DNA of 64,000 nucleotides from Leucoraja ocellata (lineage: Eukaryota). Location: the NCBI GenBank assembly GCA_036785375.1, contig JAWMAR010000612.1, positions 930,001-994,000 of the forward strand, written 5' to 3'. Below the pieces are notes generated by a model, which saw only the letters and a program-made list of their open reading frames with translations, searched no databases and was not told the DNA's origin. Shown in pieces: positions 42,086-43,149 of this stretch. The position numbers and the translations under genes were made by a program. Numbering within the stretch: the stretch's first letter is position 1; every line of letters starts with the position of its first letter.

Positions 42086-42380
42086 TGCTGCACGAGCTTT
42101 TCGTTCGGTCTCTGTGGTTGGTTGGCCACCACGTGGTATTATGCCTTTTGGTTGTAAGTTGAATTCCTCATTCTGTACTACAAAATGAAACGGCTAACAG
42201 GAAAGTGACCTCCGTGAGGTTTTCCTGCATCCGCACTTGCCGCTTCTGACTGGCTGGCTTCTCACATGACTCTATTTGCAACAGTTGCAAGTAACAATCA
42301 CTGGTTGATACAACCGATGGCGCGCAATTCAAAGCGCCGCTGGAAGGCAGGGCAACACAGCTCAATGCATTGATCCTGGC

Positions 42381-42418
42381 CAAAGATCTTATAGCAGAGC
42401 TCTGCTATAAGATCTTTG
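42381..42418. mobile_element. 38-bp perfect palindrome with 8-bp target-site duplication (transposon footprint / micro-MITE)
   Basis: ATCCTGGC-[CAAAGATCTTATAGCAGAGCTCTGCTATAAGATCTTTG]-ATCCTGGC. Confidence 0.85.
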
Positions 42419-42690
42419 ATCCTGGCTGTGCCGAGAGTGACAGCTCCTCTAGTATCTTTGGTGACAACTGACCCTCTTTCCCCCTACTTTCAGAGCCTTT
42501 GTATCAGCCGAGCCTCGGTGGGATTTTGTTTCTGAGAGTTATTAATTTAAGAGTAATTCCACTTGCACCCAGTGTTACTTCCAAAGCATTACTGTAGTCT
42601 GGGAGTAACAGACGTGATCAGTCGGTATAACGACTAAAGAAGGGTCTCGACCCGAACCGTCGCTCATTCCTTTTCTCCAGAGATGCTGCC

Positions 42691-42721
42691 CAAAGATCAC
42701 AGAGCTGCTCTATGATCTTTG
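42691..42721. mobile_element. 31-bp near-palindrome with 8-bp target-site duplication, inserted in a Penelope-derived repeat
   Basis: ATGCTGCC-[CAAAGATCACAGAGCTGCTCTATGATCTTTG]-ATGCTGCC; sister repeat copies (e.g. 51777-51800) show the empty site GAGATGCTGCCTGTCCCG. Confidence 0.85.
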
Positions 42722-43149
42722 ATGCTGCCTGTCCCGCTGAGTTACTCCAGCGCTTTGTGTCTATTTTCGGTTTAAACCGGCGTCTGCAGTTCCCTCCTAT
42801 ACAAGGAACTGCTGATGTTATCTTAAAAACAAAAGACACAAAGTGCTGGAATAACTCAGCTGCTTCGGGGTCGGGGTCAGACAGCGTCTCTGTATAACAT
42901 GGATAGGTGACATTTCGGGTCGGAACCCTTCTGCAATCTGATCAGCCTGGATGTGGTCCCGGAAGAGCAGCAAGTGCGTAACTGCAAATAAAAACCTGCA
43001 GATGCTGTAAATCTGAAATAAAAGCAAAATCCTGGAAACACTCAACAGGTCAGGCAATATCTTTGGTGAGAGAAATAGAGTTAATTTCAGATCAACTGCT
43101 TTTCTCCATGAGAAACAATATAAACAACACGACTTATTGCACATGGTCG

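Follow-up and report, generated by a model that had tools for sequence, protein, structure and literature searches.

Two short palindromic inserts in a 64,000-nucleotide stretch of Leucoraja ocellata DNA (the window) are most probably germline excision scars: with a probability that we put at roughly 85%, both consist of the outer ends of P-superfamily transposons, set head to head between intact 8-bp duplications of the target site (TSDs) and produced by a staggered cut at nucleotide (nt) 20 or 18 of the element end. A first-pass annotation, made from the letters of the window, had proposed that the inserts were such footprints, and the proposal is borne out by P-type parent elements with matching ends and 8-bp TSDs, by a peak in footprint length and by junctions resembling repair products. 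The 17-nt stagger assumed in that annotation is not supported, the limit being 20 nt in one family of elements (family A) and 18 nt in another (family B).

Two inserts upstream of a tRNA gene

The sequence agrees with the annotation as to the two palindromic inserts, their exact 8-bp TSDs and their coordinates. The features of this region, in window positions, are as follows.

42013..42085, minus strand: tRNA-Lys(CTT) gene, a neighbour (Rfam and tRNA call)
42373..42380, no strand: TSD of insert 1, left copy, 8 bp, ATCCTGGC
42381..42418, no strand: footprint 1, 38 bp, from a family A P element, whose left and right ends contribute 20 nt each and share the central GC (20+20-2)
42419..42426, no strand: TSD of insert 1, right copy, 8 bp, ATCCTGGC
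42630..42775, plus strand: high-copy host repeat interrupted by insert 2, with approximate ends
42683..42690, no strand: TSD of insert 2, left copy, 8 bp, ATGCTGCC
42691..42721, no strand: footprint 2, 31 bp, from another subfamily with 20-nt-type ends; the right arm matches a parent exactly over 15 nt
42722..42729, no strand: TSD of insert 2, right copy, 8 bp, ATGCTGCC

Insert 1 is a perfect palindrome. It had been parsed as 17+4+17, but each arm matches the parent end over 20 nt, which gives 20+20 with two bases shared. Insert 2 can be read either as 15 nt (with one substitution) plus 15 nt plus one filler base, or as 15+17 with one base shared. It comes from a different subfamily than the family A footprint 1, one of the two possibilities (separate events or subfamilies) that the annotation had drawn from their differing internal sequences; one parent end of this subfamily is known (locus L158), and the variant end is also present in another footprint.

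The insert pattern matched twice in the window; shuffled sequence gave 0.05 matches on average, and two matches were reached in 1 of 100 shuffles. A generic scan of the window for inserts of 18-69 bp with inverted ends between 8-bp direct repeats returned both inserts, a sub-match inside insert 1 and nothing else, and a relaxed scan that reached 10 kb beyond both borders of the window yielded no further insert; the earlier statement that the 64 kb hold no other example therefore stands. Insert 2 is a true insertion into a repeat, again as annotated, 12 of the 13 copies of its host repeat in the window being empty. Genome-wide, 16 footprints of varied sequence and with lengths of 25-38 occupy the identical site in this repeat, which shows repeated independent visits to a good target. 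The right part of insert 1 was found on a matching flank in contigs labelled as coming from two organisms (organism D for X16 and organism A for X1; two of four runs). These contigs start inside the insert, a few bases past the 20 nt shared with the parent, and their flank differences number 2 and 4; their coverage takes in neither the left side of insert 1 nor the full span of insert 2. Since they carry part of insert 1 together with its flank, scar 1 is inherited and shared, and is no assembly error.

Both inserts lie 296-636 bp upstream of the tRNA-Lys(CTT) gene, in keeping with the ∼300-640 bp given by the annotation. This tRNA, the only feature of the window to score above the Rfam gathering score, is probably outside the mechanism. 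Elsewhere in the window, one open frame on the minus strand (49779-51047, 422 aa) specifies a rhodopsin-family GPCR, which we take to resemble the relaxin-3 receptor. The host repeat of insert 2 bears a CTGAAGA-hairpin-GAAAC motif like the minimal core of a hammerhead ribozyme, also seen at 5847-5871, 25369-25392, 26918-26942 and 58274-58298 (six matches in the window against 0.78 by chance); Rfam called none of these in the window, and we presume a possible tie to Penelope-like elements.

A genome-wide class of probable footprints

Inserts of 26-46 bp with this pattern were present at 4,249 sites of the 3.44-Gb assembly, against 10 for a control pattern, a figure that represents neither the total nor the number of independent events; the pattern starts at 26 bp and misses ends mutated in their first 8 bases. 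All of the first 50 listed sites were fetched, and these form a non-random sample, 40 coming from one contig and 10 from the next. An 8-bp TSD (with at most one mismatch) was found at 47 of the 50, and a 7- or 9-bp fit at none. The 50 footprints fall into 49 flank groups, 44 of which are unique among all fetched loci. Fourteen different lengths occur among them, 49 of the 50 footprints being no longer than 40 bp. The annotation had expected a length peak around 30-38 bp, and one is seen in this sample at 26-38 bp: the classes are 38 bp (10 footprints; this commonest length is that of footprint 1), 33 bp (8), 28 bp (7), 26 bp (6) and 31 bp (5).

Longer inserts of 41-70 bp were found at 568 sites (13 for the control). 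Among the matches listed, these are mostly short templated repeats of end sequence, together with copies lying in tandem duplications; a perfect TSD borders 9 of the 13 fetched. Identical 38-mers and 34-mers recur at many unrelated sites with perfect TSDs. The junctions vary as repair products do, and their templated inserts resemble those described for fly P excision in PMC2895639. Paralogous loci with scars of different lengths (L146/L389 and L012/L196/L199) are 77-88% alike; the differences in length could reflect later slippage or separate insertions.

Parent elements with P-type transposases

Long elements with the same termini, which the annotation had advised searching for, were found, and they encode a P-type rather than a hAT transposase. 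Ends continuing past nt 20 gave 3,852 matches, a count that partly includes footprints; 27 of the 30 fetched read on into the motif AAGAT, and for many the opposite end of the element lies at a distance of 390-1,320 bp, with an 8-bp TSD. A search of the genome for the GTP-binding domain found in P transposases gave 129 matches. Twenty regions were fetched, 19 of them around such matches and one picked for its paired ends, and in eight of the 20 a P transposase frame is enclosed by family A ends and an 8-bp TSD (four of the eight share one TSD, leaving five independent cases). Family A's terminal inverted repeats (TIRs) measure 23-28 bp, one being reduced to 15 bp owing to a substitution. Family B ends have 18 nt ahead of AAGAT (1,262 matches, footprints partly included; 22 of 30 fetched are parents) and TIRs of 34-35 bp, and the elements are mostly 2.2-4.5 kb long with 8-bp TSDs. 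A family B transposase lies in an 11.9-kb copy with a matching TSD (L076/L278), a single element with both B ends. The transposases of the two families are 73% identical. Hybrid parents, with one 18-nt and one 20-nt end, occur in 4 of 20 regions.

Read frame by frame, the transposase contains a THAP domain on a separate upstream exon, followed by HTH, RNase H and GTP-binding domains (Pfam PF05485 on the upstream exons, PF12017, PF21787, PF21788 and PF21789). Its sole PDB match is the fly P transposase, 6p5a_A (E 1.7e-41). In this alignment, compared by eye with the residue list of PMC7776569, the catalytic triad D230/D303/E531 is kept, and seven of the eight GTP-site residues are identical (K385, V401, S409, F443, D444, N447, D528), the eighth being a K400 to R change. 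The nearest named proteins are molluscan, with 35-40% identity. All transposases found between the footprint-type ends were P-type, and none was hAT-type. Families A and B both have TIRs of the kind typical of the P superfamily (about 13-31 bp or more, around the transposase gene), and their 8-bp TSD falls within the 7-8 bp usual for it. On the sequence evidence, the TSD and TIRs together with the protein's domains and key residues place the parents in this superfamily.

Several arrangements were noted among the fetched copies. A family B element (2700-8586) is nested in a family A element at L092:1302-8836, each with its own 8-bp TSD. At L247:3091-5835, a 914-aa endonuclease plus reverse transcriptase frame (a LINE) sits inside a family B element. 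An abundant element of ∼400 bp has one 20-nt-type and one 19-nt-type end (L023, L032, L035-L037, L039, L040, L042-L045). Two old, decayed footprints lie side by side inside family B elements, ∼600-700 bp from one end, and have been copied along with them (L076:9163-9280, L092:7885-8000, also L077-L079, L081 and L095). In addition, one hybrid 18+20 footprint has been multiplied along with the GC-rich host repeat that carries it (L256-L262, L265, L269).

Position at which retention stops

At 1,953 footprint ends, 20 nt of the parent are kept, and 37 of these continue with the parent's next two bases; of the 37, nine are clearly in inner parent sequence, 11 are 30-mers fitting a 5-nt overlap and 17 are of other kinds. 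The main lengths of 38, 33 and 28 bp arise because the family A end has a self-complementary GC at nt 14-15 and at nt 19-20. In 86% of the 20-nt ends the next base is T, the mark of the class with a GC overlap. As such an overlap hides the true end, the 269 ends of the 1,953 without this T were examined (100 rows were listed, representing 94 loci, and counted by eye). Clean stops at nt 20 without overlap were seen at 21 of the 94 loci (seven being exact 20+20 joins), 14 loci were ambiguous, ∼11 carried one or two extra A past nt 20, matching parent nt 21-22, and the remainder were templated, mutated or read-through. No exact 21+21 or 21+20 join occurred among the 94. The exact 20+20 joins checked numbered eight, and all were independent. 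The extra A may stem from cutting at 21-22 in a minority of events, or from bases added without a template.

For family B, 180 ends keep 18 nt. Its 78 listed loci include two that read into AAGAT, 20 that are 34-mers, four exact 18+18 joins and 31 of the hybrid 18+20 form, with no join after nt 20 among them. All 19 fetched 34-mers, and three of the four exact 18+18 joins, were independent. A 2-nt indel near nt 11-14 distinguishes family A from family B, and their retention limits are 2 nt apart as well; both stops fall directly ahead of AAGAT, which is an exact repeat of nt 3-7. As read from the footprints, the limits of 20 nt (family A) and 18 nt (family B) do not match the 17-nt second-strand cut of the fly. 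The comparison of two families, each with its own transposase, suggests that the inner motif AAGAT sets the cut position.

Two sets of footprints turned out to be single events. The hybrid 18+20 footprints might have proved that one enzyme cuts at two depths, but the 9 of 9 fetched share flanks and thus stem from one amplified event; three 40-mers with an off-centre junction were likewise reduced to one event by a check of their flanks. The abundant small elements with a 19-nt end should give 37-bp joins of the 20+19 type; none was found among 16 matches, which neither cut model explains.

Target choice

The TSDs lean to GT....AC, with G at 57% and T at 68% in positions 1-2 (92 sites, symmetrised), like the fly P target consensus, which PMC2577343 describes as palindromic with a GT....AC core. 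Among 92 independent loci, 22 have CpG-island-like flanks. In comparison, such DNA was seen in 3 of 184 windows lying distally at these loci and in 27 of 498 windows taken as background (p = 3e-7). Of the 22 sites, 17 are low-copy among the fetched loci, and in the first-50 set the proportion is 13 of 46. Footprints thus do favour CpG-island-like DNA. Both sites in the window are below the CpG-island-like threshold (47-49% GC). The preference for open promoter chromatin put forward in the annotation is therefore kept in a weaker form, as an enrichment in CpG-island-like (promoter-like) DNA, while the enrichment that it expected at tRNA genes was not seen at the loci sampled. A second footprint was present within ∼150 bp at 4 of 108 loci, against 0.4 expected within 1.5 kb. 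With tight pairs being this common, the close pair in the window is not special. Two near-identical paralogous tRNA-Cys loci (L324 and L325:1095-1130) were observed to differ by a footprint, one being empty; the scar is a 35-bp family B footprint with an 8-bp duplication, 406 bp upstream of the gene.

Alternative explanations

The identical 38-mers and 34-mers at many unrelated sites, with their perfect TSDs, might be taken for micro-MITEs of 26-40 bp that transpose as units, moved by the P transposase. This is the least probable of the origins considered. Junctions differ at one recurrent site (the 16 footprints in the host repeat, of 25-38), lengths track the overlap positions of the parent end, and templated fillers are present; moreover, such units would be without the inner half of the TIR, contacted by the HTH in the fly, and without the internal THAP site described in PMC7776569. 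A Made1-like micro-MITE would be uniform in length and sequence within a family, but the first 50 footprints show 14 lengths. The annotation's own alternative, an extremely small hAT/P MITE, is unlikely given the P-type parent enzyme and the varied lengths and junctions. Like the present inserts, hAT transposons and MITEs have 8-bp TSDs and short TIRs; hAT excision, however, leaves flank-derived hairpin scars without element ends, whereas the scars described here keep the element ends and both TSD copies, and their parents encode a P-type enzyme. Scarcely more credible is an origin without transposase, in which the two TIRs of a resident element underwent slippage or deletion, or gap repair was aborted. 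It would fit nine of the 37 rows, those clearly in inner parent sequence, and the 11 30-mers with a 5-nt overlap, but these make up only ∼1% of the 1,953 ends; slippage needs an overlap and could stop anywhere in a TIR of 23-35 bp, while retention was seen to end abruptly at nt 20 or 18, and some joins have no overlap. It is also unlikely, if less so, that the two scars lie upstream of tRNA-Lys owing to a targeting of tRNA genes or Pol III chromatin by this family. The annotation had inferred such a link from the two scars, and the scar that the relaxed pattern revealed 406 bp upstream of one tRNA-Cys gene, but not of its paralogue, might be added in its favour. Yet no tRNA was found within 1.5 kb of any of the 92 independent footprint loci, and a strict footprint or parent end was found at none of 58 tRNA loci (38 groups; 0.22 expected), which are mostly Lys and Cys and represent a small top-scoring subset; one of the 58 has a relaxed-pattern footprint. 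In these samples nothing resembled the targeting of Dada elements, which insert at or beside tRNA genes, and tight pairs of footprints are common regardless of tRNAs (4 of 108). Strong tRNA targeting is excluded, and the data bound any enrichment at less than roughly 14-fold.

The more serious question concerns the cut itself. The scars may be P footprints in which each transposase counts its own fixed distance (20 nt in family A and 18 nt in family B, co-evolved with the 2-nt indel), or in which the overhang is slightly longer than it appears, masked by GC overlap and trimming; we consider this quite possible, though the less probable reading. In its favour, the two families have separate transposases, 73% identical, the hybrid footprints go back to a single event, a T follows 86% of the 20-nt ends, in the GC-overlap class that hides the true end, and there is a minor class with extra A or AA. 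Against it stand the overlap-free joins at exactly 20 nt (eight independent) and 18 nt (three independent). In addition, no more than 11 of the 1,953 ends make use of the 5-nt overlap available to a 25-nt overhang, and the stop is shifted by exactly the 2-nt indel and still lies ahead of AAGAT. On balance we incline slightly towards an inner cut placed by the inner motif, rather than counted from the tip, and falling just before AAGAT.

Proposed mechanism

In the model that we favour, a P element inserts at a GT....AC site of weak palindromic character, in many cases within CpG-island-like DNA, and 8 bp are duplicated there, as can be seen at the sites themselves. By analogy with the fly mechanism, the transposase would then cut one strand at the tip and the other inside the TIR, so that both chromosome ends would carry a 3′ overhang consisting of the first 20 (or 18) nt of the TIR. 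The junctions suggest that end joining would unite these identical overhangs, mostly via GC pairing at nt 19-20 or 14-15, to give 38 = 20+20-2, 33 = 20+15-2 and 28 = 15+15-2, and 34 = 18+18-2 in family B; some joins would form without overlap (40 = 20+20, 36 = 18+18) or with templated filler. The 5′ end freed by an inner cut just before AAGAT could re-pair with the looped-out strand, as in the fly transpososome. The resulting scars would be inert, and the pair in the window would reflect a general local clustering of insertions, with no tRNA targeting. As no locus among those fetched had both a full element and a footprint allele (contigs X16 and X1 showed the footprint form), we infer the excision step.

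According to PMC7776569, the second strand is cut by the fly enzyme at a depth of 17 nt from the end; in the structure described there, the transferred strand loops out and is disordered at -14 to -18, and the looped-out strand pairs with the 5′ part of the non-transferred strand, a pairing that is required. The same source says it is not known in which order, or by what mechanism, the P-element strands are cleaved. The AAGAT repeat past the stop is compatible with re-pairing of a looped-out strand with the 5′ non-transferred strand, as far as can be judged from the element ends. In the fly end given in PMC11368186, the best re-pairing found by eye sets nt 19-23 against nt 4-8, which is again this register, with three matches and two G-T pairs.

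Comparison with known systems

The elements described here share with the P element of Drosophila melanogaster the 8-bp TSD, the transposase domains and the catalytic residues (PMC7776569), as well as the liking for promoter-type DNA and the local clustering. At fly donor sites, PMC2895639 reports that up to 17 nt of each end stay between the 8-bp TSDs, joined either through a short overlap or through templated insertions; here too, both outer ends are kept, with short overlaps or templated filler. Unlike in the fly, however, retention ends at 20 or 18 nt instead of 17, two sister families differ in depth within one genome, and the footprints are natural, inherited and in their thousands, those of the fly coming from crosses. 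The nearest natural case is BuT5 of Drosophila mojavensis, a P-related MITE (PMC3698922) for which PMC3355041 reports a natural, fixed, 27-bp footprint with both ends (12+15 bp). It is a single case, located at an inversion breakpoint and with a 9-bp TSD, and we saw no conclusion on cut depth drawn from it in PMC3355041. Among vertebrates, zebrafish Pdre2/zfTHAP9 and human THAP9 have in common with the present families a P-type transposase and the 8-bp TSD (PMC10983969, PMC7776569). In contrast, the TIRs of Pdre2 are 13 bp long and zfTHAP9 carried out excision but no integration in cells, as reported in PMC10983969, while human THAP9 is described as having no TIRs (PMC10983969, PMC7776569); here, there are 129 GTP-domain matches, long stop-free frames and thousands of ends and scars.

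The footprint mechanism itself is thus known, from fly crosses and from the one natural 27-bp BuT5 case (PMC3355041). Our literature search, which covered sources other than subscription journals, Repbase and Dfam, turned up no report of natural P footprints in such numbers (thousands), of a stagger that departs from 17 nt or of skate P elements; families A and B may already be named in Repbase or Dfam. The present case contributes the linked parents with their transposases, a depth that differs between two sister families, and an inner repeat located where retention ends.

Our wider proposal, made tentatively and at somewhat less than even odds, is that the depth of the second cut in P-type elements is set by the element's own end, via an inner repeat of nt 3-7 that re-pairs with the looped-out strand. 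The stagger would then be programmable (17, 18 or 20 nt), vertebrate P transposases would have both excised and integrated in the germline, and the genome would hold thousands of dated junctions of one break. Sister families that stop at 20 and 18 nt before one repeat offer a direct swap test of how a long stagger is positioned. The genome also provides natural copies of P-type transposases with long open frames, of interest given the failed integration of zebrafish THAP9. Finally, the scars constitute a large natural sample of germline end joining at an identical break, of use in repair studies and as presence/absence markers.
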